In this document: one piece after another, positions 3,035 to 63,805 of the stretch | Layout: every line of letters begins with the position of its first letter | How positions within the stretch are numbered: the first letter of the stretch is position 1 | DNA from: a virus | Virus record (IMG/VR): IMGVR_UViG_3300048593_000672 | Span: 10,688 to 74,687 of that record | DNA: 64,000 nucleotides | Reading direction: 5' to 3' (one strand) | Notes under the pieces: generated by a model | The model's input: the letters and a program-made list of their open reading frames with translations, nothing else | Told to the model about the DNA's origin: nothing | The model's database searches: none | Translations under genes and position numbers: made by a program

Positions 3035-3592
3035 ATGAGAACCAAAAACTTTATCAAGACTGTCAGATCGTTAATGACTGAGACTGACCACCAAAAAGAA
3101 TTTGACAACTACGTTAAATGGGAGTCAAAAAAGACAGAGCAAGGCAACCGTAACATTGATCTGTTAGCTCAAGCTGTTAATCAAGCCGTAAGCAAAGTCA
3201 ATAAAACAATAGATGATTTTAGCCGCTCTATTATTGATTGCTCAGATCGGGTTAATGAGTTTAAGAGCCTCCTGCCTATTGAGGGAGAATACAAATTAAT
3301 AAGACTTATCTCTCCTAGTCGTCTTTTTATGGGGTTTGCTGATCCGACTTTTACGGTTCCCATCCCAGAATCGTGCCAAGTTTCCCCAATGAATGTGACT
3401 TGTAATTATGGGGGTTATAACAGCAATGGCGTATGGGGAATAGATTGGTATCGAACTGTGATGGGTGGCTTTGATGTTGATTTATCTGAAGCCAACGACA
3501 AAATGCACAATTGTCCCTATTTTGTCAACAGTTCCCAACTAAAATGTACAGCAAACCCCACTAATACTAATTGTTTGGAGTGTAATGAGTAA
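3035..3592 (+). CDS. Hypothetical protein with Cys-rich C-terminus (DUF6464-like)
   Basis: CPYFVNSSQLKCTANPTNTNCLEC. Confidence 0.6.
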   Translation: MRTKNFIKTVRSLMTETDHQKEFDNYVKWESKKTEQGNRNIDLLAQAVNQAVSKVNKTIDDFSRSIIDCSDRVNEFKSLLPIEGEYKLIRLISPSRLFMGFADPTFTVPIPESCQVSPMNVTCNYGGYNSNGVWGIDWYRTVMGGFDVDLSEANDKMHNCPYFVNSSQLKCTANPTNTNCLECNE

Positions 3593-4374
3593 TGCTATTC
3601 ACAACCCACGACCGCAACCTTATCATTGACAGCGAAACTTATTTAGCAGCCTACAGTTTTGAGCCAACTGCCATCGAAACAACCGCCACACTCGACCCCA
3701 ACAATGCAGAATTAAAGTCAATCTATAGCGATCAAATCACACCAGCTTTTGTTTTGGGTGGTGGCTTGCGCGACGCTAAAATCATTCACTTACAGGGTGT
3801 AGATTGGCGATCACTTCCCCCCACCGTTGAAGCCCATCCCTTTAAAGAAGTTGGGCAAGTCGGGAAAGTTACTGGCAAGGGTCGGACTGCTTTTACCGTA
3901 GAAAATCGCACTCGCATTAGTGCTGCTCTCGCTGGTGCTTCTGTCTTAAAGACCAGTCCACTTTGCTTACATAATTTCTGCGATGTGCCAAGAGTCGTCA
4001 TTGGGGGGGGCTGTGGATTAAGTATTGGCTACTATACTCATCAAGCTACCGTTGATACTGTCAACAGCCAGTCCAGCTTTCTCTTGTCTAGTACCAGTGA
4101 TTTTACCTATGGCTATATCGAATTTACGTCTGGAGAAAATGCCGGGTGTCGATTTGCTATTAGCACTGGCTACAACGGCGCAATTGAGCTTGCTGAAATA
4201 CCAGAGGGAGAAGTTAAAGTAGGGGATGAGGTAACAGCCGTTGGGGGCTGTGCCAAAACTCCAACGGCTTGTCAAGCCTATGGCAACTTCATAAACTTTA
4301 TGGGCATTCCCACCGGAGGGAGTTGGATACCTGGGATGGACGCAGTTCAAAATGCACCAATTGAGAGGGCTTAA
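3592..4374 (+). CDS. Tail hub protein, DUF2163/Phage_BR0599 (RcGTA g13-like), lacking first strand
   Basis: FTTHDRNL, SPLC..GC, FTSGENAG, GCAKTPTAC..GNFINFMGIP. Confidence 0.85.
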   Translation: MLFTTHDRNLIIDSETYLAAYSFEPTAIETTATLDPNNAELKSIYSDQITPAFVLGGGLRDAKIIHLQGVDWRSLPPTVEAHPFKEVGQVGKVTGKGRTAFTVENRTRISAALAGASVLKTSPLCLHNFCDVPRVVIGGGCGLSIGYYTHQATVDTVNSQSSFLLSSTSDFTYGYIEFTSGENAGCRFAISTGYNGAIELAEIPEGEVKVGDEVTAVGGCAKTPTACQAYGNFINFMGIPTGGSWIPGMDAVQNAPIERA

Positions 4375-5929: not shown

Positions 5930-6199
5930 ATGAGCAATAAAGTTTTAAAGCCTGCAAAAGATTTAGTTGTTGGCGAAAAATTCAACTTTAATAATGGGGA
6001 AAAACCTTCATATGTGTGGGTAGTTGACAGCATAAAAAAAGACCCTCGATTCCCCAACGAAATAGAACCAATGGATGTGTGGGAAATCACTTATCACATG
6101 GAGCATCCTGATATTCAATCCCCCCGTCAGCATTTTGTCCACGCTGATAAAAGTGATCTTGTTTTAGCGATAGTTAACGCACCCCCGCCCGTAATTTAG
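5930..6199 (+). CDS. Hypothetical protein, convergent with tape measure
   Basis: ATG coupled to the upstream stop. Confidence 0.55.
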   Translation: MSNKVLKPAKDLVVGEKFNFNNGEKPSYVWVVDSIKKDPRFPNEIEPMDVWEITYHMEHPDIQSPRQHFVHADKSDLVLAIVNAPPPVI

Positions 6200-9100
6200 C
6201 CAACTGGCGATCGCGTTCAATCTGACTCATTGACTTGCCAAGATCATTCGTGTTAGCCACTTCAATCTTAATGGTTTGATTGAAGTTGTTAACAGTTCCC
6301 TCGCTGGTATTAGTCTGAGTAGTGTTGGGGATGTAGGAAACAGGGCCGCCCTTGGCAAAATTCTTAACATCCTTGGCCATACGTTCTGACCAGTCTTTAT
6401 AGTTGCGGTAGTCGCTGGCTTCGTTTGCAGAAATCACATACTCGTCAGCATTAAGGACGGCCAGGATGGGCCGCTTACCACCCGACTGCGACCTCTCCCG
6501 ATTCATTGCTTGACTAATGCCTTCTACCAGTCCCCCACCCGCATAATTATCAATCTTGAGGGGGTCAACGGGGCCGCCGTCGGCAAAGTTGAACGCATGA
6601 CTAATCATTCCTGTAAAGCCGCCCGATAAGCTGTCAGCTATTGATTGACCCGCACTGGCATTACCAGCGTTAAACAGATTGCCAAAAATATCACTGCCAG
6701 CATTGATAAAGCTACCGCCGCCGCTAACTGTTAAAGCACCAGCAAAAGCAGATAGGGCTGTAGTCGCTTCTGTCAGTCCCAAAATAAAACCGGCCATGGC
6801 GGGGTCAGTGGAAGTAATACCAGCGAGGAAAATGTTATCCATTGCTTGGCTGGTATTAGTCGTTGATTCCGTCAGGCTAGTAAATGCACTACTCAAATCA
6901 ATTGTGTCGGGTAAAGCTTGACCTGTTGTTAATGTATTGCTTAAGTCAAAAGGCACAATGTTGTTGGCCGCTATGCTTGCCCCCCGCTCACCTAGTCGCG
7001 TAATTACATGGGGATAAAATTCTTTGTTATCCAGACCGAGCATTGGCCCAACCCATTCAGCGATCGCATTTTGGAAGGGTTTGATAGCTAACTGCTCTAA
7101 CATCATCCCCAAAACAAGATCCTTGACTTTGTTGAGCGACTCCCCTAGTCCCTTAGACTCTAGGATCGCGCTACGCAGCCCCGAACTAAACTCTTTTAGA
7201 CCTGGGATAGCGTCAACAAATGATCGCTTAATATTTAACTCACTAATCTCAGCCTGAAACCGCCGCATTTCACTAGCCTGTTGAGGCGAGTAAGCACCAT
7301 CCCGAATCTGCTTCTCTAAATCAACTCTGGCTTGAGCCGCTTGCATCCGAGCATTAATAATCGCACTGGGGTCAATTAACGTTCCCATTCCCCAATCATT
7401 CTGCGCCCCAACGTCATAACGGGTTTTGTAGAGGTCAGCTTGAATTTTGGCATAACCCTGTTTAGATGCCATAATTTTATCGAGTCGCAACCAGGCTTCA
7501 GTGGCTCGTTTAGTGGGTTCTTCTAACGCAGCCATCGCCTTGGATTGCCTGTCAATTTCTTCCCGACGAGCTTGCATAATGGGAATGCTGTCGGTATAAA
7601 GTTTTAAATTGCTTTGATAAACAGACATAGCTTGCAACTCTTGAGTAGTTGCTTGGCGACCAGCTTTCGTCAGTTCAGCTTGCTTGTCAGCTAAGGCTTG
7701 TGCCGCAACCGCCGCACCAATATAGGCATCATCCATCTGTCTGCCAAGATTCCGCAATTCATCATCAAAATCACGGTTCATCTGGCGGAATTGTACACTA
7801 ACTCCTTCTACAGCCAGGTTAATCTCATCAGCAGCCGTTTTATAGCCCTTGCTGTTAATGGCTAACTCACGATACTTGATATTGTTATCCTCAACTTTTC
7901 GACTCAAGTTAAGAGCCATATCTTGAAGGGATTGTAATTGCTGTTGGAAGGCATTGTTGAACTTGACCACCTCAAGATTGCCTTGCAGATCAAGCACAGC
8001 CCGATTGACCCCAATTGTCGCATTCTTAACATCATTAATCTGACCAGCCGTATTAGTTAAACTACTCGTATCTTGTACAGTGATTGGATTTTGATCTGTA
8101 ATTTGCTGTAAGCCGCTATAGTCATTAATTGCCCTTGGCTGGTATTTTGTAATAAATGGACTTTGTACGTTTGGCAGGACATTTCCCCCATTCATATCAA
8201 CTTGAGGCTCAAGTTGAGAAGGTTGATAGCCTGGGAGTGTTTGATATTTTTTAATGTTGGGGTTGACATTGGCATTGCTACTACCAATCCCCTTGGCCGC
8301 ATCAACTCTTGCCTGACTTTCCTTAAATTGTTTGGCAATTGCCTCAGTGCGTTTTTTCCAATCCTTCGACGACATCCTATCAATAAACTTAATGCCTTTT
8401 GACTCATAAAACTCATCAAGTTTAAAGGCTTCAGGATAAAGTTCTTTTTGATATTTGATAATATCTTCTAATGGCTTGCGGCTAATATTATTTGGATCGT
8501 TCAACTCAGCTTGACGTTTTCTTGCCTTCTCCTGTTCGATCCGTTTGGCCCGCGCAGCAGTAGTGGCATTAGTCTGGAAAATTGCAGATCCCATATCACT
8601 AATACCCTCACTGGCATCAGCGACTAGCCACTCTTTGGGGGCCGCCGATCTCATTTGATTGTATAAGATACCCCTTACTCTAGATAAAGACTTCAAGTAT
8701 TTAGATCCGTAGGCTGGATCTGTAGCATAGCGACCATAGCGACCCTTAAAGTCACGGTTGATAAAATCTTCAGGAGTGCTAAAGAAAAAGTCTTTTTTAA
8801 GTTTAATTGCTGCGTACTCTAAGCCCTGTCCGTAGGTTTTAAAGTGCTTGTTATTGCCAGCATCATCGTTGCCATAGTTCAGTGGGTTTTTAGTAAACTT
8901 CCCTCGTCCCTTGGTTCCAAAATGGCTTTCAATAAATGCTTGAGTTACTAAGGCATCAATGCTAACTCCTGACTTGGTAGCAGCATTTTTAAAATCCTCA
9001 ACTGTCATTTGAGAACCATACTGGTTCAGCAATCTTGCTAAGTTTTTCTCCCATCCCATCGATTGAGTAGTAGCAGCCTGCGCCGGAGCGGTCAAGATGT

Positions 9101-12100
9101 TTTGCGCTGGTACTTGTAGTTGATACGATGTTTTAACTTGCTTTGGTGCAGCAAGATTTAATCTCATCCCCCCGCCATACTTGCCCATCAGCCCGTTTAG
9201 TCCATTAACATCCCCAGGTGCGTAGTATTTAGTTGGTTGTACGACCGCACTTGGCTGACCAATCGGGACTGAGAACGGGACTCGTTCAACTACCGACTCA
9301 CCGTAGCGGGGATCGATATTAATACCAGCAGAGGGATTGTATGAGAGAGGGGCGGCTGGCAGTGAAGGGAGCTTGTTTTGATAGCCGCTATTGGGAGCTT
9401 CTTTCGTAATCCGGGTTATGATTTGCTCTAGCTCACGCCCTAACTTAATAGATGACGACTCCATCTGCATCATCATTGACCTAAACTGTTCATTGAGCCG
9501 GATGATGCTACGAGTGCGTTCCTCTTCGGCCCGCAGTTGTTTCTCCTGTTCATCCCGAATGCGCCGGAGAGTCGTCACATACTCTTGGCCAACCTGACGT
9601 TGTTTCTCATCAAGCGATCGCCCTTCCCCTTCCAAATTGCCGATATTCGCGAGGAAGTCAACAAAGATACTGGCAGTCTTTTTACCAATACTGTCGGGTT
9701 GGAAGCTGATGGATTCAACAGCCAGCGTAGCCTTAGCTTGTCTCAGTTTCTCGCTGGTGCTTTTAAGTTCATTCTGAGCGGCCAATAGTTGACCTTCCAA
9801 ATCAAACTGTAAATCAGCCCAAGCCTCCTGCAAACCGCGAGTCTCGATAAAGGCATTACGGGCTGAATCCTGCACAGACCAGCCAAAGTCACGGACTTGT
9901 TGTTGCCAACCAATCTCAGTCTCTAGCACAGAGCGGTTAAAGTCCTCTACCGATTGACCCAAGCCCCGATAATACTCTTCAGTGTTCTGTCCCGACTGCA
10001 TCACTGCAAACTCAGCTTTAGCTACAGCTTCATTAGCACTTGCTAGTTGTTTAGCTAACTCTACTGGGTCTTGGGAGTTATCCTTAAACAGTGCTTTAAC
10101 ATCTCTTAACTGACGTTTAGCTGTAGCCAAGTCATTGTAAGCAGAAAAAGCTTGAATATCTTGAGTGCCAATTTTGCCCTTACTAGCAGCTTGATACATC
10201 TCAATATTCGTGTTGCTAGCCGCAATCTGGGTGTTAGCTTGACGGATAGCATTGAGTCGTTGTTGCTGTAGCTTTTCAAGATCAATTTGAGCTTGTAAAA
10301 CTTTGCCCTCTAACTCATTCGCTTGCTGGTATTTTTCTTTAAACTTAATAGATTGCTCTAAGAAAGTTTTTAGTCCCCCGCTAATACCATCCCCAGATTC
10401 AACCAACGCCTTCATTGTCTCCACGCTGGTATTCATGATCATGTCTAGGGGGTCTTTATATTTCTCCCCACCACGACCTCGTAACTCAAGCCGGTTCATT
10501 GCATCCTGAGCGACACTTGGCTCTAGTCCATTTAAAGCAAAACCTTTAAATGTTTCAGCATCTTGTTTAACAGGCAATAATTCCCGTTTGGCAGTAGTTA
10601 AGTTATCTAAAGCTTGCTGGCGTTGTAAATCAATATCATCAAGTTTTTGATTAAGCCGAGCTTCAAGTAATTGATTATTACGACGACTTGCTAACCCCTG
10701 ATTGTATTCAGCGATATTAGCACCAGCAGAAGAAACTAATTGACTAGCTCCTTGTAAACCAGGAATCTTTTGGTTGATAGAACCAGTGTGCATTCTGATT
10801 GCTTCTAGCCTGACGTTGGTATCAGACATTAGCTTGGCAATGACTTCTAGCTTTGCCTCACGTGCTTGAGCGTCGGGATTCTTTTTGACTGTCTCCCTCA
10901 TAGCCTCATAAGCTTTATTCATCTGCTCTAAAGCAATCTGATTGCCAAAAGTTTCATTGACGGCTTTTTCTCGATCCCCCACCTTTACTGCCAACTCAGC
11001 ACTAAGGTTTTTAAACTCCTCACGGTTGTTACCACCCAATTTACTGTTATTAGCTAAACGAGTTCTGATAACAGCAATCTCTCGATCTAGCTGAGAAATA
11101 TCAGCTTTACCTTTTGCAAGGTTTTGGGGATTAGCGTAATTTGCATCCGCCTGTTCGATCAGTCTTTTGCCATAGCTAATACCCCTGTCAACTTGCTTGA
11201 GGTCTTCCATCAAATCCCGCCGATCATCCTTATCCATGCGAACGGATTTGTAGATATTGCCTTTTTCGTCTCGGTAGTCAATAACGATGTTATTTATGCC
11301 ACTATTTGGCGCACTTGGATCAAAGCCAAATGGATGGGTGTAGTTATTTAGAACACCACCAAAAACTCGTTGGGCAAAGTCGCCAACTCCAGTGATAGGT
11401 GTTGGATTGCTGCCACCAAGTCTTGTGTAAGTTGGATCATTTCGATCAACCTTATTGGGGTCTTTCATCTTGCCAGTCAACGTATTAGTAGCTTCCAGAT
11501 TATTAATCATCTGCTCTAATTCATCGTTAGTCTTTTTCAATTCCCCGTGATAGGACTGCCAAATTTTAGTTCCTTTATCAATCGCAAATCCAATAGCAGC
11601 AAAAGCAATTAGTTGGGGGGCGATCGCATATAAAGCACTTCCGATACCAGAAAGCGCACCAGCTGTAGCAGCTAAACCCCTTACCGCCACATTGCTAGAC
11701 GATCCACTGATAACCAGGTTCGTGTTTAGTTTGGCTAGTCCAGTATTTAAGCCATTGAGTATCCAGTTATTAGTCATAAACTCAAGCCCCAAAACCTTGA
11801 GCGCAATCGTTACAACTCTTGAGGCTGTTCCCGTATCCAGTAAAGCAAAGACAAATTTAGCCCCAAGCATCGTTACTAAAAGTCCCAGACTCGCCGTTAA
11901 TCCCGTCGCTACACTGTTAAGCGCATTCATCCCACCAACAGCTATATCCATTGCTGGCTTGCCAACTCCCAAGATTGTTTCTCCCATCCGACCCTGTAGT
12001 TTTTCCTGGGCGTTCTGGAATCGGGCGATACTACCGAGCGGCCCTTCCTTCACCGTATTAATCGGTAATGTTGCTTCGTAGGCTAGTTGTTTGGCCAAGG

Positions 12101-15100
12101 GTTGCAAGTCTGTTTCGGGAAACATCTTGCTATTTTTCATCTGGTTGGTTAACTGTTCATGGGTTAATCCCTGGGAACGAGCCATAGCCCCGATAGCTTG
12201 GGGTAGTACCTCCGCAAGCTGCGAACGTAGTTCCTCGGCCATTATTTCGCCTTTTCCGATCATCTGAACTACACTGAGGAACGCCCGTTGCTGTTCATCG
12301 GGCGTTGCACCCTGACCAACCAACGCAGCCGAGAACCCTTCAAAGATTTCTTGTACCTGGGGCGCAACGGTGGTGTTGGCGGCGGCGACTGTTAACTTAG
12401 TGAATGACTGAGCAGCAACCAACGCATTAGCTCCAATCTCATCAGCGTATTGGGCGATCTCCTTTAATTTACTGGCTGCATTAATGCTTGAGTCGTAAGT
12501 TAAAGCCGCTTTCATCCGTTCCAATTGCAGGGCGGTATCAATACCAGTGCGGGCAAAATCAACGAGCACCTGTTCGACCTGCTGAAAGCCCATGTACATC
12601 AACAGCCCACCAGCAAAGCCTTTGATGTTTTCAATGATGCGGGCAAGACCAGGCATTTTTTCTTCTAATGCCCCCATGATCCGACCTAAGCCACGAATGC
12701 CAGCACCAGCGGCACCGGCCCCCGCTTCAATTTCATCAAGAATGTTGTTAAACCATTCCCAAAATCCCTTATCGGCATTTTGAGGTGCTTGAGCAATCCC
12801 CGCAACCATATTGTTAGCACGACTATTAATAAAGTCTTTGGCATTATCGCCCATGCGCCGAGGTGCTAAATCATCAACAGTTAAACCACGACGAGGCGGC
12901 ACTGGATTGGGAGAAGCACCAGCAGGGGGAATAGGTGGTTTGCGGGGGGGTTGTCCATTGCCACCACCAACAGGAACGTGATTATAAAGTCCAGCCGCCA
13001 TAATGCGATTGGCTTCTGCAATTTGCCAGGCCTGACCTGTTAGGGGAGTAGAATCTCTCACTGGTCTTGTTGCACTTGTCTGTTGCTGTTGAATTTCCGA
13101 AACCCACAATTGAAGAGCATCACCCCATACGTCATCACCATGTAGCGGGGGGGACTGACTTGCAATCACCCTATTATTAGGAGGTAATGGTGGAGGGACA
13201 ATTCCTCTCGCTGGTGTTTGTGCCTCGGATAGAGGAGGTAGCGGTAGAAGATTAGATACCCTGTCTTGTGCAACAACAGCATTTAATTCTTTTTCATAAA
13301 TAAAGGAAACAGCCCTTTTATAACCAGTACTGTTAATATCCCTCCCGATATTGATGTTTTTAATATCGCGAAGATACAAGTTTTTAAGACCTAAAGCCTC
13401 TTCTTTGTAATTCTCAATATTTTTCCAACCCTCTTTTTCTAATTGGGGAACTGGCAAATCAAGCATCTCAATTGATTGGATAGCACCATCAATACCAATC
13501 TTGTAGCCTAAGACTAAATTCTCACCAATCTTGATAAAGACTTTACTGGGCGATTTTTCCCCCAGAACATCCATCGCGGTTGTGATAAGTTTTTTGCTGG
13601 TGTTGGCGATCGCAGCAATCGGCTCACCCTCCGAACCAGTAATACCAGCCGTCAGACCTTTATTGATGTTTAGACCGACTCGTTCCATCTTTCCATAATT
13701 TTCATCCCCTTCCATCTCTTTAAAGCCATATCCGGCCCAAAGCCTTTCGCTACGAGCATCTATTGGGGATGTACGAATTGTGTTGGAGCCGACTACACTA
13801 AACAATTCTTGCATCCACAAATCAAGTTGTTTGCGAAGGGCTGCACGAATAGCGGGGTCTTTAGTTGGTTTAAAATCTCCATTAACCATTAGATCGGATA
13901 GATACCAACCCATAGTCTTTGACACATAAGCGTGTAGATCTAGCTTTTGCCCTTCAACTACTGCACTTCTAGTAAACCTAGTTCCTACTTCGGGGGGTTG
14001 AATTTGACTGTCTTTTGTTGTCAACTCTATTCTTGGCATAGAGGATTCAATTGACAGCTTTTTGTTGATGTCAAGGCTGGCTTTTTTACCTGTAGCAATG
14101 ATTTTATCAAGATAAGAAAGTATATTTTTCCTGACAGAATCAAAGGGTAATGTATCTGTGTCAGAAGCATTTGGCAGCATACTCTCTGCCTCTAGAAATG
14201 CTTGTTTTGCTGGACTATCTTCAGTTTTGTTTACGACTCTTCTTTGAAAGCTTGAGTGATTAAAATCTTTAACGATACTACTGACATTCGCATCTTCCGC
14301 AAGTCCATAGTCAATCGCTCTTAGCTGCCCTTGTTTATCTATTAAAATATTGCCACCATGTAAGTCATTGTGTGCAATACCATTTTCTATTAAAGACTTT
14401 TTGAGTCGAATAACTTCTTTAAAGAAAGACTCTGGATACTTCCCGCCATCAGAAATATTATAAGCATCATTGGCAGTTTGCCCCCGAATCAGTTCCATTG
14501 CAATCGCAGCGTCACTAGAGCTATATCGCTTTGATCCCAAAACCCTTGGGCCAAGTCCAAGCTCTCCGGCCCTTCGAGATAGTTCTATTTCCTTGTCTGT
14601 TATTTGTCCATGTTTTAAGGCATATCCTCCCATATCATAGACAGTTCCATAAAGACCTTCCCCCAGTGTTTTTATCCCAGGAATAGTCTTAAATTCCCAT
14701 TTATGATCATATAATTCCTGTTCTGTAGGGATATTTATGGCACTTTCGTTTTTTTGTATCGGCTGCTTTGTTACTGTCCTTTGTTTGATACTATCCAAAG
14801 CAGCTTTATTCCCACCACCCCATTCATAATAAGTTTCAAGTGTCTCAGCTAAGTTGTCTGCAAAATTATGACCAAATTGCTTAGATTGGGCAAGTTCTCT
14901 TTTAACAATGCTTTCAATATCGCCAATAATCGCCGCCATTTCTTTCGGCACTTTCTGAGCAACTTGGCTAAAGTCTAAGCCTTGATCTAGTCCAGCAACA
15001 ATGTCTTGACCAATCTCTTTAAATACCAGCGAGGGAGAATTACTTTTGAGCGTCTTTTTACTACTAGTAATCATTTCCCGCAACATTTCAATCGTTGCGT

Positions 15101-18100
15101 CTTTCGGCAAATGACCCCGTTCCTGTAATGCTAATAAAATGCCATCAGGAATAGCGACACCCATCCCATGCGCTTTTTTGAGGATGTCTTTTGGATCAAC
15201 AAACTGGTCAAATTGACCTTTCCAACCGCCCAATATTTTGTTAGTTGAAACAAGACTACCTTTGCTGCTTAATGCTTGGTCTGGCAGCCCTCCCAAAGAT
15301 TGTTTTTCTGCAATAAAGTTTTTAGAGTAGTTGGCTATACTACTAATACGTTCAACGTCAATAATGTCATTAATGATCCTAATTTGATCGTTAATATTTT
15401 TGCGATTAGTTTTTAATGAATCAATTAACTGCTTAAGCTTAACTTCTGGCGAGTCTTCCCTTGCTGGTGCTAGTGCGTAAGCATCCCCACGACTGGGAGG
15501 TAGGGGTGATAAAACTGTCGTTGCAGGGGGTAGGGCATTCGTTTCTTTTGCCAGTAATTCAGCGTAAACGTGCTCAACTGGGCGGGGCATTAATCTGGGC
15601 AGGCTAGTTATAGCTTTGTTGCCAAAATTGCCGATTCCCGTTAACAGGTTGTAGGTCTTATCCTCAACAGCACTAGGCAATAATGCCAGTGGTTTTGCTA
15701 CTTGATTTAATGCAAATTGTCCTACTCCACTCGCGGTCCGACCACTCAGCAGATAAGTCAATATAGTTCCAGCCCCACCCAATGCAGCCGTTCCCGCATC
15801 ACCAATTCCAGAGCCTAAAGCCCCCATTCCTGGAATACGACTCAACCAACTAGCAGCAGTCGCGGCCCCACTCGTTAATCCTTCAGGCAATAATCCCGCA
15901 ATTCCACTACCGACAGCCCCAATTCCATGACTCAATAACGGTGTGACAACCCCGCTAGAGATAGCGTCCATTCCCGCCCCTAACAAAGGTAGATCGTGTC
16001 CCGCCATGCCTAAGGCGATCGCGGGGGAAATAGCTTGAGTTACCTTCTTAGCAGCTTGAAGATTTACTAATCCAAGGCTTACGACCTGAACAGTATCAAA
16101 AGCATATTTTTCTATTCCCTTAGCCACTCCGTAATGCTGTGATGCAATAGTGCCTAGCGATCGCATCATCTTGTTAAACAAGCTGACTTCTGGGGAAGCC
16201 AAAGCACCAGCAGGGGAAATGTCATTGGCTGGCTGTTGATCGTTTACGCCTGGGGGATTTACTTCAGAGGGATTACCACCACGACCAACCATATCCCGAT
16301 GAAAAGCAGCAAGTTCTCGATAAAGCATCTCTAAATACTTTTCGGCACCGCTTAAATTGCTTTCGCTGGTATTAGTAAAAGCTGACTCGACAGGGTTATT
16401 ATTTTCCGTTGCTGGTGTTTGGGACTCTACGGGATTATTTGCTTTTTCTGTTACGGTACGCGAAAGATTAGGCAACTCTCCAATCATTCTGACAAGCAAC
16501 GATGGGTCGGATGGGTTTCTAATGCTTTCGTCAGATGGGAGTCCGAGCGTATTTATTCTGGTAGCTCCAACGCCCTGCGATTGAAAAATGCCAGATAAAG
16601 AAAATTCATCGGTAGGAAAGATGGGAATATTTGCTTTTGTCTCTTCAGAAAGATTGCCTTTATTAGCAACAAACTCATCCATGACCGATTGCAAATACTC
16701 ATACATTTTGACAATTTGATCTTGATAAATACCAAATTGACTACCCTTCTCTTTAAACCACTTAATTGTTTCATGAGATAATTGCCGATTCAATCCTTTT
16801 ACAGCTTCAGGGTTTAAGTCCCTCGCAAAATAACCAGCAAGAGAAGAATCGCCTGACTTGAAAGCAGCCAAGTCTTGATTGGTTTGTTTTGCCTCTTCTT
16901 GATATTTTAAATAGCCGCCTAAGTCACTAGGGTTTTCAGGCATTTTAACGCCAACATCAGAAAGTCGTTTTGCTAATTCAACTTCTATTTCTTTGAAATA
17001 TTGGTTTATCAGGTCGTGTAACGCCTTACCACCAGTTCTTGTCAGTGTTACAGTCGCCGCACCATGCTCAAAAAAGCGAGTAATCAGTGATTCAACGTCA
17101 AAATTACCCCCCGCACTTTGACTTGTCTTAAAGCCTTTAAATGGAGAATTAAGGTCAAATTCACCTGTTTTCATCAATGATTTTAATTGTTCCCCAATCC
17201 CTATCAACTCATATAAATTACCCGTTGATTCCGCTATTCCCGCTTCTGTCTTTCGATTTAATCCAGTAGGACGTTCACTACCAATCGCATTGTAAAAAAT
17301 AGGGGGAAACGCAGGTTCCTTAAATAAATGTTTCCAGTCGTGAGCATCCGTCCCAGAAAGTCCTATTGTGTTTAAGAATGAAGCACCTGGCGCATTAAAT
17401 CCCCTCCCCAAACCAAGTCTATTACCAAATGTTAGGGGGTCGCCTTTAAGAATTGCTGATTGATAATTTTGGGGGATAACACCAGACAAGCCCAGTGTCG
17501 GATAAGACATTGCCAACGTATTTGTTTGCAAGCCCATGTATTGAGCAGTTCTGGCGTAAGACATTGCATCCATCCCGCCAGACATTGAATAGCCAACAAA
17601 ACGACCTTCTTTCCCCTGACTGTTAGCTGCTAAAGTATTTGCTAATGCTTGAGTTGCCGCTATCGATGTTGCCATTGGATTAATGGCAAATAACGCTTGT
17701 CTTGCCACATTCATTACCGTATTGGCAACATCCTTATCCCCCATCAGATCGGGGAGAATGGTCGAAAGTCCCTTCTTTATTAGTTCTTCTGCTGGTCTTT
17801 TTTCGCCTGGCAACGGTGCATCTGAGTTGGGATTTTCGACAGGAATAAAGCGAACGTTAGGAGCAAAAGGTTCAAGGGCCATTGCTATTTGACGACCACC
17901 TTGACCCCCCGCAAATTGACCTCCACCCCCTACACTTACTGCGCCACTGTAATTTTGTAAGTCAGGAAAATTGCCTTTTATTTGATCGTAAAGCTGCTGA
18001 GCTTGTTTGCTAGTTCGATAAGTCTGAATGCCTTGAATTAGCTTTAATAGTGGTTGAAATTCCGCAATAATGGGATTAATAACATTGTCAACTATCCCTT

Positions 18101-19076
18101 TTGGTTGGGCTAAATCTAGAAACTTATCTAGAGTCTGTAATTTAGAAGTTGTCCCCATTGAAGCTAAAGGACGATTTTCTATCGTGGCATAAATCTTTTT
18201 AAGCTCATTATCGCTTTGGATTATTTGATCGATAGCGGCAGCATTTGCTTGAGTCGCAATATCTCTCAGCTTATAGATTCGCTCCAAAGACTTTGCAATT
18301 CCTGATCGCGGTTTTGCGGCTTCTGTTGCTTTTTTAAAATCACCAGTGTCTAATAATTCTCCTAAAAAAGTCTCAAAATAATTATCGGTTCCCACTACAA
18401 AGTTATTAAAAGCTCTTACACCAGCTTTTACTTTTGCCGACGACTCTCTAACGCCACTCGTTGCAAATTCCCCCGCTAAAGTTCGACCAATTTCTTCAGC
18501 AAAACCAGTAGCAATTTTATTGACTGCTTGCCCTGCAATATTCATTGGAATGCGAATTGGCGCAGAAACTACATCAAAAGCAAAGCCAGCGATTTTAGAT
18601 AAAACTCCACCTGGCCGCAAGTGTGCAACTTCTTTAATAACGTCCCGAAAATCCTGATCTAACTGCTTACCGAGTCCCCTAATTTCACTTGCCAAAAGAC
18701 TATCTTGCCTTAAGCTATCAACAGAAATTTGATGCCGAATCGTCCCACTAAACGATCCCCCCGCCATCATGTCATTTTTAAGCACCCCCAACTCCCGCCG
18801 AAACTCCCGAACCTGATTAATACCAGCAGAGAGGGAAGTAGGGTCGTAAAGCGACTTAATGGGGATTGATGCTTCTTTCCGCAGTTCCCCAATATGCTTA
18901 ATTTTTTTGTCAATTAAATCGTTGAGTCCATGCAGTTGTTTGGTGTCAACGGGAATGGCGATCGCAGACTGACGCTTAAGTTTGCCCAGTTCATTGTCAA
19001 CTTGATACATCCGGCGATTGAAGTTATCAATCCGAGCGTCAATGTCAATATAGATCTGACCGCCATCAACTGCCAT
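6174..19076 (-). CDS. Giant tape measure protein (4300 aa) with hydrolase-like, kinase-like, GNAT-like and GH73 domains
   Basis: Follows tail chaperones; tape domain QMIGKGEIMAEELRSQLAE; SPS repeats; FADGG/FAKGG C-terminal motifs; enzyme motifs in findings. Confidence 0.93.
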   Translation of the reverse strand: MAVDGGQIYIDIDARIDNFNRRMYQVDNELGKLKRQSAIAIPVDTKQLHGLNDLIDKKIKHIGELRKEASIPIKSLYDPTSLSAGINQVREFRRELGVLKNDMMAGGSFSGTIRHQISVDSLRQDSLLASEIRGLGKQLDQDFRDVIKEVAHLRPGGVLSKIAGFAFDVVSAPIRIPMNIAGQAVNKIATGFAEEIGRTLAGEFATSGVRESSAKVKAGVRAFNNFVVGTDNYFETFLGELLDTGDFKKATEAAKPRSGIAKSLERIYKLRDIATQANAAAIDQIIQSDNELKKIYATIENRPLASMGTTSKLQTLDKFLDLAQPKGIVDNVINPIIAEFQPLLKLIQGIQTYRTSKQAQQLYDQIKGNFPDLQNYSGAVSVGGGGQFAGGQGGRQIAMALEPFAPNVRFIPVENPNSDAPLPGEKRPAEELIKKGLSTILPDLMGDKDVANTVMNVARQALFAINPMATSIAATQALANTLAANSQGKEGRFVGYSMSGGMDAMSYARTAQYMGLQTNTLAMSYPTLGLSGVIPQNYQSAILKGDPLTFGNRLGLGRGFNAPGASFLNTIGLSGTDAHDWKHLFKEPAFPPIFYNAIGSERPTGLNRKTEAGIAESTGNLYELIGIGEQLKSLMKTGEFDLNSPFKGFKTSQSAGGNFDVESLITRFFEHGAATVTLTRTGGKALHDLINQYFKEIEVELAKRLSDVGVKMPENPSDLGGYLKYQEEAKQTNQDLAAFKSGDSSLAGYFARDLNPEAVKGLNRQLSHETIKWFKEKGSQFGIYQDQIVKMYEYLQSVMDEFVANKGNLSEETKANIPIFPTDEFSLSGIFQSQGVGATRINTLGLPSDESIRNPSDPSLLVRMIGELPNLSRTVTEKANNPVESQTPATENNNPVESAFTNTSESNLSGAEKYLEMLYRELAAFHRDMVGRGGNPSEVNPPGVNDQQPANDISPAGALASPEVSLFNKMMRSLGTIASQHYGVAKGIEKYAFDTVQVVSLGLVNLQAAKKVTQAISPAIALGMAGHDLPLLGAGMDAISSGVVTPLLSHGIGAVGSGIAGLLPEGLTSGAATAASWLSRIPGMGALGSGIGDAGTAALGGAGTILTYLLSGRTASGVGQFALNQVAKPLALLPSAVEDKTYNLLTGIGNFGNKAITSLPRLMPRPVEHVYAELLAKETNALPPATTVLSPLPPSRGDAYALAPAREDSPEVKLKQLIDSLKTNRKNINDQIRIINDIIDVERISSIANYSKNFIAEKQSLGGLPDQALSSKGSLVSTNKILGGWKGQFDQFVDPKDILKKAHGMGVAIPDGILLALQERGHLPKDATIEMLREMITSSKKTLKSNSPSLVFKEIGQDIVAGLDQGLDFSQVAQKVPKEMAAIIGDIESIVKRELAQSKQFGHNFADNLAETLETYYEWGGGNKAALDSIKQRTVTKQPIQKNESAINIPTEQELYDHKWEFKTIPGIKTLGEGLYGTVYDMGGYALKHGQITDKEIELSRRAGELGLGPRVLGSKRYSSSDAAIAMELIRGQTANDAYNISDGGKYPESFFKEVIRLKKSLIENGIAHNDLHGGNILIDKQGQLRAIDYGLAEDANVSSIVKDFNHSSFQRRVVNKTEDSPAKQAFLEAESMLPNASDTDTLPFDSVRKNILSYLDKIIATGKKASLDINKKLSIESSMPRIELTTKDSQIQPPEVGTRFTRSAVVEGQKLDLHAYVSKTMGWYLSDLMVNGDFKPTKDPAIRAALRKQLDLWMQELFSVVGSNTIRTSPIDARSERLWAGYGFKEMEGDENYGKMERVGLNINKGLTAGITGSEGEPIAAIANTSKKLITTAMDVLGEKSPSKVFIKIGENLVLGYKIGIDGAIQSIEMLDLPVPQLEKEGWKNIENYKEEALGLKNLYLRDIKNINIGRDINSTGYKRAVSFIYEKELNAVVAQDRVSNLLPLPPLSEAQTPARGIVPPPLPPNNRVIASQSPPLHGDDVWGDALQLWVSEIQQQQTSATRPVRDSTPLTGQAWQIAEANRIMAAGLYNHVPVGGGNGQPPRKPPIPPAGASPNPVPPRRGLTVDDLAPRRMGDNAKDFINSRANNMVAGIAQAPQNADKGFWEWFNNILDEIEAGAGAAGAGIRGLGRIMGALEEKMPGLARIIENIKGFAGGLLMYMGFQQVEQVLVDFARTGIDTALQLERMKAALTYDSSINAASKLKEIAQYADEIGANALVAAQSFTKLTVAAANTTVAPQVQEIFEGFSAALVGQGATPDEQQRAFLSVVQMIGKGEIMAEELRSQLAEVLPQAIGAMARSQGLTHEQLTNQMKNSKMFPETDLQPLAKQLAYEATLPINTVKEGPLGSIARFQNAQEKLQGRMGETILGVGKPAMDIAVGGMNALNSVATGLTASLGLLVTMLGAKFVFALLDTGTASRVVTIALKVLGLEFMTNNWILNGLNTGLAKLNTNLVISGSSSNVAVRGLAATAGALSGIGSALYAIAPQLIAFAAIGFAIDKGTKIWQSYHGELKKTNDELEQMINNLEATNTLTGKMKDPNKVDRNDPTYTRLGGSNPTPITGVGDFAQRVFGGVLNNYTHPFGFDPSAPNSGINNIVIDYRDEKGNIYKSVRMDKDDRRDLMEDLKQVDRGISYGKRLIEQADANYANPQNLAKGKADISQLDREIAVIRTRLANNSKLGGNNREEFKNLSAELAVKVGDREKAVNETFGNQIALEQMNKAYEAMRETVKKNPDAQAREAKLEVIAKLMSDTNVRLEAIRMHTGSINQKIPGLQGASQLVSSAGANIAEYNQGLASRRNNQLLEARLNQKLDDIDLQRQQALDNLTTAKRELLPVKQDAETFKGFALNGLEPSVAQDAMNRLELRGRGGEKYKDPLDMIMNTSVETMKALVESGDGISGGLKTFLEQSIKFKEKYQQANELEGKVLQAQIDLEKLQQQRLNAIRQANTQIAASNTNIEMYQAASKGKIGTQDIQAFSAYNDLATAKRQLRDVKALFKDNSQDPVELAKQLASANEAVAKAEFAVMQSGQNTEEYYRGLGQSVEDFNRSVLETEIGWQQQVRDFGWSVQDSARNAFIETRGLQEAWADLQFDLEGQLLAAQNELKSTSEKLRQAKATLAVESISFQPDSIGKKTASIFVDFLANIGNLEGEGRSLDEKQRQVGQEYVTTLRRIRDEQEKQLRAEEERTRSIIRLNEQFRSMMMQMESSSIKLGRELEQIITRITKEAPNSGYQNKLPSLPAAPLSYNPSAGINIDPRYGESVVERVPFSVPIGQPSAVVQPTKYYAPGDVNGLNGLMGKYGGGMRLNLAAPKQVKTSYQLQVPAQNILTAPAQAATTQSMGWEKNLARLLNQYGSQMTVEDFKNAATKSGVSIDALVTQAFIESHFGTKGRGKFTKNPLNYGNDDAGNNKHFKTYGQGLEYAAIKLKKDFFFSTPEDFINRDFKGRYGRYATDPAYGSKYLKSLSRVRGILYNQMRSAAPKEWLVADASEGISDMGSAIFQTNATTAARAKRIEQEKARKRQAELNDPNNISRKPLEDIIKYQKELYPEAFKLDEFYESKGIKFIDRMSSKDWKKRTEAIAKQFKESQARVDAAKGIGSSNANVNPNIKKYQTLPGYQPSQLEPQVDMNGGNVLPNVQSPFITKYQPRAINDYSGLQQITDQNPITVQDTSSLTNTAGQINDVKNATIGVNRAVLDLQGNLEVVKFNNAFQQQLQSLQDMALNLSRKVEDNNIKYRELAINSKGYKTAADEINLAVEGVSVQFRQMNRDFDDELRNLGRQMDDAYIGAAVAAQALADKQAELTKAGRQATTQELQAMSVYQSNLKLYTDSIPIMQARREEIDRQSKAMAALEEPTKRATEAWLRLDKIMASKQGYAKIQADLYKTRYDVGAQNDWGMGTLIDPSAIINARMQAAQARVDLEKQIRDGAYSPQQASEMRRFQAEISELNIKRSFVDAIPGLKEFSSGLRSAILESKGLGESLNKVKDLVLGMMLEQLAIKPFQNAIAEWVGPMLGLDNKEFYPHVITRLGERGASIAANNIVPFDLSNTLTTGQALPDTIDLSSAFTSLTESTTNTSQAMDNIFLAGITSTDPAMAGFILGLTEATTALSAFAGALTVSGGGSFINAGSDIFGNLFNAGNASAGQSIADSLSGGFTGMISHAFNFADGGPVDPLKIDNYAGGGLVEGISQAMNRERSQSGGKRPILAVLNADEYVISANEASDYRNYKDWSERMAKDVKNFAKGGPVSYIPNTTQTNTSEGTVNNFNQTIKIEVANTNDLGKSMSQIERDRQLAKLRAGVR

Positions 19077-19078
19077 AA

Positions 19079-19534
19079 CTAACTACTCTCAAACGATTTA
19101 ATAATTGCCCAGTCGTCGGGCCGAACATGGGCGATGACCTGGGCGATGTCCGAGGGCAACAAACCAAGCTTACTTGCATTACTAACAATCTTAGCTGTTT
19201 CCGTGTCAATCGGCTCTTTACCCTTCTCTGGAAATTGAAAGGGTAAAAACTTAGCCGCATCGGGATACTCAACGGAAAAGTGATCGGGATTATTGTGAAC
19301 CTGAGTCCAGTAAGTAAAGTGAGCGACTAGCCTGGCCACCGTCATATTCTGGGCGTTAATCTCTTCGGCTCTTGACCGATTAATCAAAATCCACTTCTCG
19401 TATAACAACCAATCAGGCAGTTCTTCAAAATCGGATAGGGGTTGGCCCCAATTTAGCCAATCCCCCAGTATCCGATCCCAATCTACCTGTTTGGCATTTA
19501 GGATTTCCCTGATTTTTTCACAGGCTCCTTTCCC
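19079..19534 (-). CDS. Tail assembly chaperone GT extension (-1 frame)
   Basis: Frame open from slippery GGGAAAG through the 19079..19408 ORF. Confidence 0.75.
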   Translation of the reverse strand, partial: GKGACEKIREILNAKQVDWDRILGDWLNWGQPLSDFEELPDWLLYEKWILINRSRAEEINAQNMTVARLVAHFTYWTQVHNNPDHFSVEYPDAAKFLPFQFPEKGKEPIDTETAKIVSNASKLGLLPSDIAQVIAHVRPDDWAIIKSFESS

Positions 19535-22386: not shown

Positions 22387-22434
22387 TTGACAACTAAGTT
22401 TGCTATAGTATTATCAATCATAACATTTTACGGT

Positions 22435-24081
22435 ATGCTGTCCTTCCCCCTAATTGAATCGTTAACCATTCAAACAACAGTTGACTTCCCAAAGAATCAT
22501 ATCTTGAGAGATGATAAAGGGCGGGAACAGCGCATTATCCCCCACCAAGCCCCACTACGCAAATTTAACTTAACCAAAAAGATATTAACTGCCAGTGATG
22601 TTAATGATCTTTATGACTTATTTGAAAGCATGAAGGGGGCTGGCGATAGCTTTCTTTACCAAGATAAATCAGATTATAGGGCGACTCGTTTAGCTAATAC
22701 TTTCTCTGCTGGTGTTTATACTCAAGGCGTAATTATTAAAAGTGGTAGCACTTATTTACTTTGCAAAAAATACGCCTGTGGCGATAACATTCATTACCGT
22801 CCCATCTATCATGCCGACACATTAACGATTTACAGTGGTGATACGGTTGTGACAGGCTGGACATTCTTTGACGGTGGCACAATAACTGGATTATCTGGGG
22901 ATGGCTATACTGCAAACTTTACTTTTAAAACCCCCGTTAGGTTTGAAGTTGATAAGCTTGAAAACGTCATCTCTACAAGCAAAAATAGCTCAGGTCGCTT
23001 ACTTTATTCGCTTAACAATGTAATGTTATCTGAGACGCGACAAAGCATCCCTATCATCCTCACAGATACATTTCTAGACGATTGTGGACATACTTTTCAG
23101 ATAGATTTCCTGTTTAACGCTACTATCAGCAAAAACTACACTACTGAGATAATCCCATTAGCCAGTGGATATGAAAAACGAACCTCGTTACAGGATGATG
23201 GCATTACTGAGATTGACTTTGGCGATCGCACTCAACTAACCCAAGATCAACTTGAATACTTGCTATGCGTTTGGCTAAATACTAAGGGCTGTGGCGCATT
23301 CTTCAACTTTGAAGATGAAACAAATACCAGCGTGGGAGCAAGGTTTGATAATATCCCTTTAAGTTACACACAGCGATCGCCACTCCCCTATCCCAAATAT
23401 GAAGTTAAGGGATTAAGAGCAAGATTATTTTATGAGGGAATTTTAGAGGATACCGGCTACAACGGTTGGACTGGTTCTGTTTTGACGCTGTGTGATTGTA
23501 TTAAGATTAAAATAGAAACCCCACCTGCTATTACCGTTATTACCGTGCTAACCTATACGACGGGACAAAGCACTTTCGGTTATACGCTCTTACTAAAAGC
23601 GGCTCATTATGGTACTTACGCGCAGTCGGATACGGTTGTAGGGACGTGGACTGACTTAACAATTGTTGGGAATGGCCCGATTATTGTTAGTGGTTTCTGG
23701 ACATATGTAGGTGGATTTTCAATGTTGACCTATGGCGGGCCTATTGTAAACGGCATAAATTTAGGATGGCACGGTGGAGGCATAGACGAGGGTGAAGTTT
23801 ATGTTTATCCCCGTTCAAATCCTAATGCACCTGGTTTCTCAACGATTGGCTCCATCTCTTATCAAATAGTGTTATCAAGTAATGGAAAAAGAGATATTAT
23901 TCAGTTACCCTACACTAATCTAATTAGTATTGAAAGCGTGAAAAATATTAGCCAAACAATTACCTACATTGAGAGTGTAGATTATGAGATTGTCAGCCTT
24001 GTTAGTGGGCAGATTAGACCATTAGTGGGCGGGGCGATTGAGGACAACCAGCAGCTAATTATTAGTTATTCAATAGCCTAA
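22435..24081 (+). CDS. Distal tail protein with two DUF2460-like repeats plus hub-like strand and extra domain
   Basis: GREQR..GAGDSFLYQD..FTFKTPVRFEVD, then SGYEKR..KGCGAFFNF..ARFD; ATG 22435 after a promoter. Confidence 0.75.
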   Translation: MLSFPLIESLTIQTTVDFPKNHILRDDKGREQRIIPHQAPLRKFNLTKKILTASDVNDLYDLFESMKGAGDSFLYQDKSDYRATRLANTFSAGVYTQGVIIKSGSTYLLCKKYACGDNIHYRPIYHADTLTIYSGDTVVTGWTFFDGGTITGLSGDGYTANFTFKTPVRFEVDKLENVISTSKNSSGRLLYSLNNVMLSETRQSIPIILTDTFLDDCGHTFQIDFLFNATISKNYTTEIIPLASGYEKRTSLQDDGITEIDFGDRTQLTQDQLEYLLCVWLNTKGCGAFFNFEDETNTSVGARFDNIPLSYTQRSPLPYPKYEVKGLRARLFYEGILEDTGYNGWTGSVLTLCDCIKIKIETPPAITVITVLTYTTGQSTFGYTLLLKAAHYGTYAQSDTVVGTWTDLTIVGNGPIIVSGFWTYVGGFSMLTYGGPIVNGINLGWHGGGIDEGEVYVYPRSNPNAPGFSTIGSISYQIVLSSNGKRDIIQLPYTNLISIESVKNISQTITYIESVDYEIVSLVSGQIRPLVGGAIEDNQQLIISYSIA

Positions 24082-38676: not shown

Positions 38677-38749
38677 TACCCAATACTGGAATCGAACCAG
38701 TCATCAACCGATTATGAGTCGGATGCTTTAACCAATAAGCTAATTGGGT
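38677..38749 (-). tRNA. Phage tRNA with CAT anticodon (Met or Ile2)
   Basis: Acceptor ACCCAAT/ATTGGGT, loop CTCATAA, T arm ACTGG-TTCGATT-CCAGT. Confidence 0.88.
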
Positions 38750-38765
38750 GTTAAGTTTTAAATCA

Positions 38766-38838
38766 GCCCCAAGACTGGATTTGAACCAGTGACCTCGTTG
38801 GGAAACCGTATTGCTCTACTAGACTAAGCTACTTGAGG
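38766..38838 (-). tRNA. tRNA-like gene with defective anticodon arm (possibly ex-Gly)
   Basis: Good acceptor CCTCAAG/CTTGGGG, D and T arms; anticodon arm short and unpaired. Confidence 0.65.
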
Positions 38839-62758: not shown

Positions 62759-63805
62759 TCACATCCGATCAACTTTAGCTAAAATCTTTTCAAACGCCTT
62801 CTGGTGCGTATCGTCATCAATCCATAAATTATAAGTGTCGGCATGGACTTTTTCGCTATGCCCCATTTGCTTTGAGGCCAGTCTAATATCCAGCCCTAAG
62901 TCAATTGTCCTTCTAGCCCAACAATGTCTAAGCGCATAGGGTGGGAAGGGGATGTGGTTGCGCTGGAATATTTTGGTGACGCGATCGCCGTAGTCTCGAT
63001 AGTATTTTCCGGTGCATTGAGGCAAACAACAATCAGTCAAGTTAAATTCGTCAAGCCAGTCGGGGTAGAAAGGCCAAGTTTTTCTCGCCCCGCGTTTGCC
63101 CTCGGTCACATAACAAATTCGATTTTCTACCAGGTAGCCAAGATCAACAAAAAATAATTCATGATTCCGCAACCCAAACGTTGCCAACATCCCGTAAGCC
63201 CATTTGCTTGACGGGTATTTAATCCTGTCATACCACTCCACGATAGTTTTGTCGTCTGGTAACAGCCTAGGATTGACTTTGCTGGCTGAATAATTGCCTC
63301 GTAGCGACGCAACATTCAAATCTAGCTGCAAAAACCTGGCCAACCCTCCTAACACCACACAAGCTTTTTTACGGGTGGAAGTGTTTGGCTTAGTTTTTGT
63401 CTTGATAAACTCCTGTAATACCTTTGCTGTAACGATCTTGTCACCATCAAAGTGGCTTAAGACGGATAAATAATCATGCTCCCAAGTGCCTAGGCTTTGA
63501 ATCGTCGGTAAGTGATCAATAAAATACTGCTCTTTGAATCGGGCGATCGCATCCTTAAAGGTCAGCTTACAAATACCAGCAGGAGAAGTTTTGTCTGGCC
63601 AGGTAAACGTCCCATCCTCTAGTTGAATCGCCAAAACTAAAGCCCTGTCTTTTGCCTTCTCCCATCCCATCGGGTCACTCGCTAATCCCGTTGCTATCCT
63701 CTGCTGGTGCTTATTTTCTTTTCCGCTCCCAGGCTTCGGCGGTAGCGTTGCTACTAAGTAGAGCCACCCACTCCGATCTACGATTGTCACGTTTTTTACT
63801 TTCAT
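62759..63805 (-). CDS. int: Tyrosine integrase, cyanobacterial type
   Basis: LYLVATLPPKP arm domain; GLRNHE, LRHCWARR, MGHS..H..TY. Confidence 0.95.
   Translation of the reverse strand: MKVKNVTIVDRSGWLYLVATLPPKPGSGKENKHQQRIATGLASDPMGWEKAKDRALVLAIQLEDGTFTWPDKTSPAGICKLTFKDAIARFKEQYFIDHLPTIQSLGTWEHDYLSVLSHFDGDKIVTAKVLQEFIKTKTKPNTSTRKKACVVLGGLARFLQLDLNVASLRGNYSASKVNPRLLPDDKTIVEWYDRIKYPSSKWAYGMLATFGLRNHELFFVDLGYLVENRICYVTEGKRGARKTWPFYPDWLDEFNLTDCCLPQCTGKYYRDYGDRVTKIFQRNHIPFPPYALRHCWARRTIDLGLDIRLASKQMGHSEKVHADTYNLWIDDDTHQKAFEKILAKVDRM

Follow-up and report, generated by a model that had tools for sequence, protein, structure and literature searches.

The subject of this analysis is a kinase-like domain embedded in a giant phage tail protein, encoded in a 64,000-nucleotide stretch of DNA (the window; positions 10,688 to 74,687 of IMG/VR virus record IMGVR_UViG_3300048593_000672) from an uncultured virus. 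The record is a metagenome assembly of 74,687 bp that is 94% complete according to CheckV. On the minus strand of the window, a 12.9-kb open reading frame (ORF; 6174–19076) runs uninterrupted for 4300 amino acids, occupies 17% of the genome, and encodes a tape measure protein of the tail (TMP; P0001, whose residue numbering is used throughout). An original prediction, made from the letters of the DNA, had described an intact Ser/Thr kinase-like domain that was bracketed, together with a GNAT-like domain, by two SPS repeats and formed part of a swappable cassette. The ORF list and its translation place every motif of that prediction in this single minus-strand frame.

The identification of P0001 as a TMP is based on several profile matches. 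The tape-measure core (aa 2180–2315; 12132–12539, minus strand) is recognized by Pfam TMP_3 (PF20155) at 41.8 bits, barely above the cut-off of 41, and by TIGR02675 from NCBIfam at 32.7 against a cut-off of 21.35. A PHROG scan matched seven tape-measure families, with phrog_2335 at an E value of 1e-22. The gene also lies in a tail module, with tail and terminase genes nearby in an unusual order; the record encodes a terminase, a neck/tail-completion match, a tail protein, and distal-tail (DUF2460) and hub genes. By TMP similarity, the nearest isolated phage is Cylindrospermopsis phage Cr-LKS4, whose TMP of 2987 aa has no kinase. None of 50,697 phage records matched the TMP gene in a megablast search, and searches of viral, metagenome and genome contigs for related loci found no relatives. 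The window DNA is present in many lake-water metagenome runs, and no RNA run is listed among those that contain it. A freshwater cyanophage, a siphovirus from lake water, is the likely origin of the sequence.

The kinase core spans aa 1455–1625 (14202–14714, minus strand), and all of the elements described below are encoded on that strand. A Gly-rich ATP loop, LGEGLYGTVY (aa 1471–1480; 14637–14666), is followed by the β3 lysine K1488 in YALK (aa 1485–1488) and the helix-C glutamate E1496 in DKEIE (aa 1494–1498), which together are encoded at 14589–14615. The hinge AMELIRG (aa 1526–1532) was located in the same frame. The catalytic loop HNDLHGGN (aa 1569–1576, with H1569, D1571 and N1576) lies at 14349–14372, one base from the start of 14350 originally given for it, and the metal-binding DYG (aa 1589–1591, with D1589), the equivalent of DFG, lies at 14304–14312. 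The set of residues for ATP binding and phosphotransfer (Gly loop, β3 Lys, helix-C Glu, HxD...N and DxG) is thus complete. In an alignment of the domain with 44 short homologues (A1, 45 sequences), D1571, N1576 and D1589 are invariant and G1474, G1477, K1488, E1496 and H1569 are at least 90% conserved, so that the anticipated conservation of the catalytic residues was borne out.

Profile and homology searches point in the same direction. The Pfam ABC1 model (PF03109) matches the domain with an E value of 9.5e-8 and 31.9 bits against a gathering cut-off of 22.9, covering only positions 140–217 of the 244 in the profile, and phrog_18305, annotated as 'kinase', matches at 7.7e-9. The Pfam Pkinase model (PF00069) covers only profile positions 70–157 of 263 and, at 29.5 bits (E 6.4e-7), stays below its gathering threshold of 31.7. 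The expectation that a kinase profile would recognize the domain therefore held for ABC1 and failed for Pkinase. A HMMER scan of 1.84 billion representative sequences returned 608 homologues below an E value of 1e-3, with a top hit of 2e-23 and identities of only 30–40% throughout; a word-based search, a weak tool here, found no kinase homologues among proteins of 388–2000 aa. Judged by these comparisons, the motif set and its homologues are far beyond chance.

The kinase domain contains no cysteine. Absence of Cys was considered as a mark of fusion to virion proteins and was rejected, since 127 of 148 other family domains are also Cys-free and Cys makes up 0.17% of the free-standing family. 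Many free-standing members in A1 (for example P0014, P0018, P0020 and P0036) start with a Cys-rich motif, CxxGxSCGxxCIxxxxxC, and others start with FVRCQRADGSxYGTxGxCxKG. Both N-terminal motifs look like small metal-binding or knot-like modules.

Structure prediction agrees with the profile matches. An AlphaFold2 model built on A1 has pLDDT values above 90 over model residues ~41–170 and is predicted to adopt the bilobal kinase fold. In comparisons with VIA-align, the model matches PIM1 (Z 14.8, rmsd 3.4, 198 residues aligned) and hundreds of other kinases at Z above 8. Rio2 (Z 13.8) and Rio1 (Z 12.9) are no closer than ordinary protein kinases, and a match to the archaeal RNA kinase Ark1 (Z 13.3) takes in 164 of its 173 residues. 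Foldseek gave an E value of 4e-10 and a probability of 1.00 against protein kinases of the PDB, and in a viral library its best matches (E 2e-12) were the RIO-like and APH-like kinases of Synechococcus phage S-CBWM1.

Assignment of the domain to a named kinase family proved more difficult. A Hanks-type Ser/Thr kinase (PF00069) was rejected because the match is below threshold, the catalytic loop reads HNDLHGGN and not HRDLKxxN, and there is neither an APE motif nor a full C-lobe. His takes the place of the Lys found in the catalytic loop of Ser/Thr kinases, and the APE motif, the activation segment and most of the C-lobe are missing, with only four short helices of lower confidence modelled after DYG. 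An ABC1/UbiB kinase was rejected because the PF03109 match is partial and TIGR01982 reaches 25.7 against a cut-off of 487.55, a Bud32 kinase because its models score 12–19 bits against cut-offs of 174–246, and a RIO kinase because the cut-offs of its family models were not reached. Weak matches were also obtained to the Pfam APH and NCBIfam Kdo-kinase models. The domain is best called a minimal eukaryotic-like kinase. The description of an intact kinase-like module thus stands with regard to the fold and the full residue set, and the label Ser/Thr is too specific. From its residues the domain is probably competent in catalysis, and its substrate is likelier to be a protein than a small molecule.

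Comparison of P0001 with two related, publicly available TMPs, P0002 (4414 aa) and P0003 (4621 aa), by blastp and by MAFFT alignment of the three proteins revealed that the kinase lies in a segment of variable content. Identity to P0001 is 75–81% over the C-terminal ~2600 residues of both relatives and 79–92% in the surroundings of the first SPS motif. Between these regions, aa 1426–1689 of P0001 (14010–14801, minus strand), which include the kinase, are absent in P0002 and replaced in P0003. In P0002 the slot holds ~14 residues: aa 1208–1425 of P0001 correspond to aa 1536–1753 of P0002, and P0001 from aa 1688 onward corresponds to P0002 from aa 1767 onward. P0003 diverges earlier, at aa 1368, and has ~270 unrelated residues in the slot. 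The right-hand boundary, just before 'QPPEVGTRF', is common to all three proteins. With aligned flanks around a slot that is near-empty in P0002 and refilled in P0003, the kinase-bearing segment can be described as a variable insert, and homologues with other content at this site, foreseen by the original prediction, do exist. The replacement insert of P0003 (aa 1700–1975) has no PDB or PHROG hit; it contains HELTH within THELTHAFQ, which hints at a possible HExxH metallopeptidase motif.

A more distant TMP, P0135 (3641 aa, ~24% identical and collinear), has an SPS motif at aa 809 and a kinase of the same family at aa 873–1000, upstream of TMP_3. The presence of a kinase at this site in P0135 implies that the site is old or has been used repeatedly; the change seen in P0002 and P0003 may be either a loss or a gain. 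Both of these relatives possess a kinase-like domain of their own (aa 878–1137 in P0002, aa ~883–1140 in P0003) with a G-loop, HNDLASGN and DFG, split by a coiled-coil insert of ~150 residues between the hinge and the catalytic lobe and located in a region that does not align with P0001. All four giant TMPs therefore carry a kinase somewhere upstream of the tape-measure core. The family tree of these kinases is poorly resolved; P0001 and P0135 fall within one supported set of 22 rows without being sisters, and the P0002 and P0003 kinases are found elsewhere in the tree. The G+C content of the insert (0.384 overall and 0.295 at third codon positions) is the lowest in the gene, and is near that of the conserved flank (0.385 and 0.326), so there is no clear sign of recent import.

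The two SPS motifs lie on either side of the variable insert and the adjoining GNAT-like block. The first (aa 1330–1368; 14973–15089, minus strand), with the core LKSNSPSLVFKEIG (aa 1343–1356; 15009–15050), is upstream of the slot and is conserved in P0002, P0003 and P0135; the second (aa 1825–1863; 13488–13604, minus strand) has the core LGEKSPSKVFIKIG (aa 1838–1851; 13524–13565). In tblastn searches the first motif matches only annotated TMPs of Enterococcus and Lactococcus phages, and the second matches TMPs in 34 Streptomyces phage records. At least nine tape-measure or tail PHROG families also match the second motif. A very similar SPS pair occurs at aa 159 and aa 811 of the Cr-LKS4 TMP, where the ~650 intervening residues are unannotated, and P0135 has only one SPS motif. 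Aligned as DNA, the window's two SPS copies agree at 47 of 111 positions (42%), and their longest identical run is no more than 8 bases. A role of the SPS motifs as repeats for recombination or cassette exchange was rejected, given their generic occurrence in TMPs of unrelated phages and the low DNA identity of the copies, and the bracketing repeats of the original prediction are thus reduced to landmarks. SPS is a conserved TMP element that, in these cyanophage-type TMPs, happens to flank a region of variable content.

The block between the insert and the second SPS motif (aa 1690–1812; 13641–14009, minus strand), called GNAT-like, is nearly identical in P0001, P0002 and P0003 and is accordingly outside the exchangeable piece. 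Of the proposed swappable cassette, then, the kinase piece does vary and the GNAT-like block does not. This block gave no Pfam hit at E values up to 5, no PHROG hit, and no PDB sequence hit, and the word-based search, weak in this setting, found no homologue among short proteins. A single-sequence AlphaFold2 model has a pLDDT of only 40; as far as this model and the sequence allow, the order of strands and helices is compatible with GNAT, and the Q/RxxGxG/A motif is absent.

Taken together, these observations are consistent with a compact, probably active kinase that is built into the TMP, delivered into the host at infection, and phosphorylates host or phage proteins there, a reading to which we give a slightly better than even chance. 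In siphovirus tails the TMP fills the tail with its N-terminal half proximal to the head and is expelled at infection. The kinase is in the N-terminal half, just after an SPS motif and ~500 residues before the tape-measure core, and would be assembled into the tail with the TMP, probably in an incompletely folded state. During infection the kinase part would exit the tail last within the TMP, just ahead of the DNA, and enter the cytoplasm, where ATP is available. There, ahead of all phage gene expression, it might phosphorylate proteins of the host (or perhaps of the phage), thereby aiding takeover of the cell or blunting its defences. The late exit fits the position of the domain in the head-proximal half, before two or three hydrophobic, membrane-type segments (aa 2392–2500; 11577–11903, minus strand; Kyte-Doolittle scan, kept in relatives) and far from a glucosaminidase-type cell-wall hydrolase module (aa 3360–3463; 8688–8999, minus strand). 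Since a kinase needs ATP, it could act only in a cytoplasm, that of the newly infected host or that of the cell making the phage.

The notion of a particle-carried kinase draws on three lines of evidence: the domain is in frame with the TMP, the same kinase family is fused to other virion proteins, and a TMP-borne enzyme is known from Thermus phage P23-45. Members of the family are fused to head proteins of the SPP1 gp7/MuF type (P0006 and P0008) and to a portal protein (P0029). By analogy, delivery into the host is plausible. One of the MuF-kinase fusions, P0006 (1105 aa), has two kinase domains and a weak match to the Pfam Intein_splicing model (E 2e-5, below the cut-off). Among the 50,697 sequenced phage records, a tblastn search found 19 records with matches, all with the kinase as a free gene and none under a TMP annotation; 13 of the 19 records with these nearest kinases are cyanophages.

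Several considerations weigh against this reading. The missing activation segment and substrate-binding C-lobe mean that an activator might be needed, as in some minimal effector kinases, and the catalytic-loop motif HNDLHxGN is typical, too, of APH-type and choline-kinase-type enzymes, which phosphorylate small molecules. A folded domain of ~20 kDa in each TMP copy is too big for the lumen of a siphovirus tail tube, and storage in an unfolded or partly folded form must be assumed. The TMP's N-terminal part could be cut off during tail maturation, and the hydrophobic segments at aa 2392–2500 leave the topology after ejection ambiguous. The phage itself is uncultured and known from sequence alone.

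Some of these difficulties disappear if the kinase acts in the producing cell, on the TMP itself, on tail chaperones or on host proteins during assembly, and is inert or removed in the particle. The TMP is synthesized in the cytoplasm, a compartment that allows the domain to fold and certainly supplies ATP, the problem of packing into the tail tube vanishes, and the present findings fit such a role as well as they fit delivery. We nevertheless regard it as unlikely, because a late cytoplasmic role would not require covalent fusion, because the family recurs on three carriers (TMP, MuF and portal) that share packing inside the virion, and because the enzyme fused to the P23-45 TMP remains on full-length TMP in virions and works in the new host (PMC10770324). 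A delivered kinase could also act on something other than a protein (a lipid, sugar, nucleotide or RNA), by analogy with the APH, choline-kinase, Kdo-kinase and Ark1 branches of the superfamily. The His in place of the Ser/Thr-kinase Lys, which APH and choline kinases share, the weak APH and Kdo-kinase matches, and the extensive Ark1 match are all in keeping with this idea. It is judged decidedly improbable in view of the canonical GxGxxGxV loop, the protein kinases that provide the best structural matches, and the related proteins that match the OspG_kinase model; moreover, protein kinases of the RIO, Bud32 and OspG types also have no Lys in the catalytic loop.

The absence of an activation segment and most of the C-lobe might instead indicate an inactive or merely ATP-binding spacer or plug, which would add length to the TMP or dock to the neck without transferring phosphate, and P0002, with no kinase at the slot, implies that the domain is dispensable for tail building. 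Pseudokinases, however, usually lose at least one catalytic residue, and here all are kept even though the nearest homologues are only 30–40% identical; in addition, contigs from lake runs of 2020 and 2024 show no change in the sequence wherever they cover it. An inert domain is for these reasons a very remote prospect. As the record is a metagenome assembly, the fusion could in principle have arisen from chimeric assembly or from reading through two genes. For practical purposes this can be ruled out: no stop interrupts the frame over 12.9 kb, the same protein is present on two contigs, and the TMP is likewise one ORF in the relatives of 4414, 4621 and 3641 aa. Furthermore, four other lake metagenome runs yielded contigs that span the kinase part (14004–14762) and, in overlapping pieces, its junctions, with zero differences. 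No joints that skip the kinase were found in these contigs, which are short, of low depth, and silent on kinase-less alleles.

A wider and more tentative proposal, to which we assign somewhat less than an even chance, is that the N-terminal half of giant TMPs is a general modular platform for effectors. A single family of minimal Cys-free kinases would have been recruited repeatedly onto TMP, MuF and portal proteins as an injected kinase that acts before phage expression and might, for instance, inactivate a protein of host defence or signalling by phosphorylating it. On this view, the slot that follows the first SPS motif would be a hot spot of effector exchange within one phage lineage, filled by a kinase, by an HExxH-type module or by nothing, much as in polymorphic toxin systems. 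The three related TMPs with a kinase, another module or an empty slot constitute a natural experiment, fusions of this kinase family to MuF and portal proteins offer an independent test of packaging as a common theme, and K1488, D1571 and D1589 are the residues to mutate. If the kinase is carried in the particle, it would act before defences that sense phage transcription or replication can respond.

Other features of the TMP also deserve mention. The glucosaminidase-type assignment of aa 3360–3463 comes from a Pfam match to PF01832 (E 4.9e-6, 27.7 bits) that is below the cut-off of 30.2. This segment is a second variable site, at which the consensus of P0002 and P0003 differs and the flanks are kept; by eye, their replacement resembles a block of the lysozyme or transglycosylase type. 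In the conserved N-terminal 826 residues, GYSMSGG (aa 495–501; 17574–17594, minus strand) resembles the GxSxG nucleophile elbow of serine hydrolases, in a region that is ~42% identical in the relatives and has no Pfam or PHROG match. P0001 has not a single Cys among its 4300 residues, against ~58 expected from the 1.36% Cys in 24 other ORFs of the window, and Cys is likewise absent from P0002, P0003, P0135 and the 2987-aa TMP of Cr-LKS4 (L002:2980–11943). Passage through the tail or the envelope in an unfolded state may be the cause.

With regard to neighbouring genes, two small overlapping ORFs in different frames (109 aa and 68 aa; 19066–19408, minus strand) are directly upstream of the TMP gene, the usual place of the frameshifted pair of tail-assembly chaperones. 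The hub gene (PF09931 and PF09356) and the DUF2460 distal-tail gene are on the opposite strand and away from the TMP gene (3592–4374 and 22387–24081, plus strand), and no tail-tip genes follow the TMP gene on its own strand, a gene order that is unusual for a siphovirus. Genes for tRNA-Met and tRNA-Gly are within the phage and one for tRNA-Cys is at the very end of the record (tRNA coordinates 38677–38838 and 63877–63948, minus strand). A weak integrase match (62759–63805) adjoins the tRNA-Cys gene, an arrangement that points to a temperate phage or to the edge of a provirus.

Multidomain proteins that are delivered by virions and include kinases have been described (PMC5512222), as have TMPs that bear enzymes, among them cell-wall hydrolase motifs, the P23-45 polymerase and the TMP-related effectors of contractile injection systems (PMC13277306). 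No report of a kinase inside a TMP was found in the literature, and no TMP-embedded member of the present family was found among the 50,697 phage records; a MinS1 'kinase domain protein' was considered as a precedent and rejected, as it is a separate ORF of 95 aa. What the present case adds is a minimal eukaryotic-type kinase in a TMP, a slot that is filled, refilled or empty, and a link to MuF and portal fusions.

The polyvalent proteins described by Iyer, Burroughs, Anand, de Souza and Aravind in 2017 (PMC5512222), in which kinases are a known kind of domain, are comparable in several respects. They are large multidomain proteins delivered with DNA, often anchored by MuF, and they combine kinases, acetyltransferases, peptidases and cell-wall enzymes in cassette-like variation (PMC5512222). 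Their kinase clade has lost the C-terminal subdomain and kept the active site, a feature shared by the P0001 kinase. The clade is defined, however, by an insert between the catalytic His and Asp, and in P0001 the residues H1569-N-D1571 are contiguous. The clade belongs mainly to elements of the Verrucomicrobia-Chlamydia group and Bacteroidetes, and the paper, which cites T7 gp0.7, does not mention tape measure proteins (PMC5512222).

In sequence and structure, the nearest relatives of the domain are stand-alone kinases of cyanophages (the RIO-like, APH-like and ChoK-like kinases of S-CBWM1, those of S-TIM5, and phrog_18305), with 32% identity in tblastn (E 9e-16) and a Foldseek E value of 2e-12. 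They share the consensus LGxGxxGxVY...K...E...GxGP...ME...HNDLHxGN...IDFG and, unlike the TMP-embedded kinase, are encoded by separate genes. The enterobacterial type III secretion effectors OspG and NleH are kinases of ~200 residues that have no activation segment or substrate-binding lobe and are delivered ready-made. One homologue of the present domain, P0005, matches the Pfam OspG_kinase model with an E value of 6e-12, whereas P0001 has no match to it at E values up to 1; the delivery machine and the target also differ.

T7 gp0.7 is an early kinase that phosphorylates host proteins and is expressed from the entering genome. The likeness is that of a phage kinase acting early on host proteins; the difference is that gp0.7 is made after entry and is not carried in the particle, and its family, phrog_15752, is not among the PHROG matches of P0001 at E values up to 0.01. 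Studied phage kinases of this kind are made after DNA entry, whereas a particle-carried kinase would act at time zero.

The TMPs of mycobacteriophages contain cell-wall hydrolase motifs. Such enzyme motifs, and the TMP-related Sle1-type effectors of contractile injection systems (PMC13277306), illustrate the TMP as a carrier of exchangeable modules, and the glucosaminidase-type module of P0001 varies as well. The known modules act on the cell wall or membrane, in contrast to a kinase, which needs ATP and hence the cytoplasm.

The closest parallel to an enzyme delivered by a TMP is gp96 of Thermus phage P23-45, a TMP of 5002 aa whose N-terminus carries a virion RNA polymerase (Chaban et al. 2024, PMC10770324). 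The polymerase is present in virions on full-length TMP and transcribes the pre-early genes of the newly infected cell (PMC10770324), an action shown by experiment, whereas the P0001 kinase is known here from sequence alone. Both proteins are giant TMPs (5002 and 4300 aa) whose N-terminal part houses an enzyme upstream of the tape-measure region; they differ in that gp96 has an RNA polymerase of ~1200–1500 residues at its N-terminus and P0001 an internal kinase of ~170 residues (aa 1455–1625). If the proposed role of the P0001 kinase is true, it would be the second class of enzyme, after the P23-45 RNA polymerase, that a TMP can deliver.

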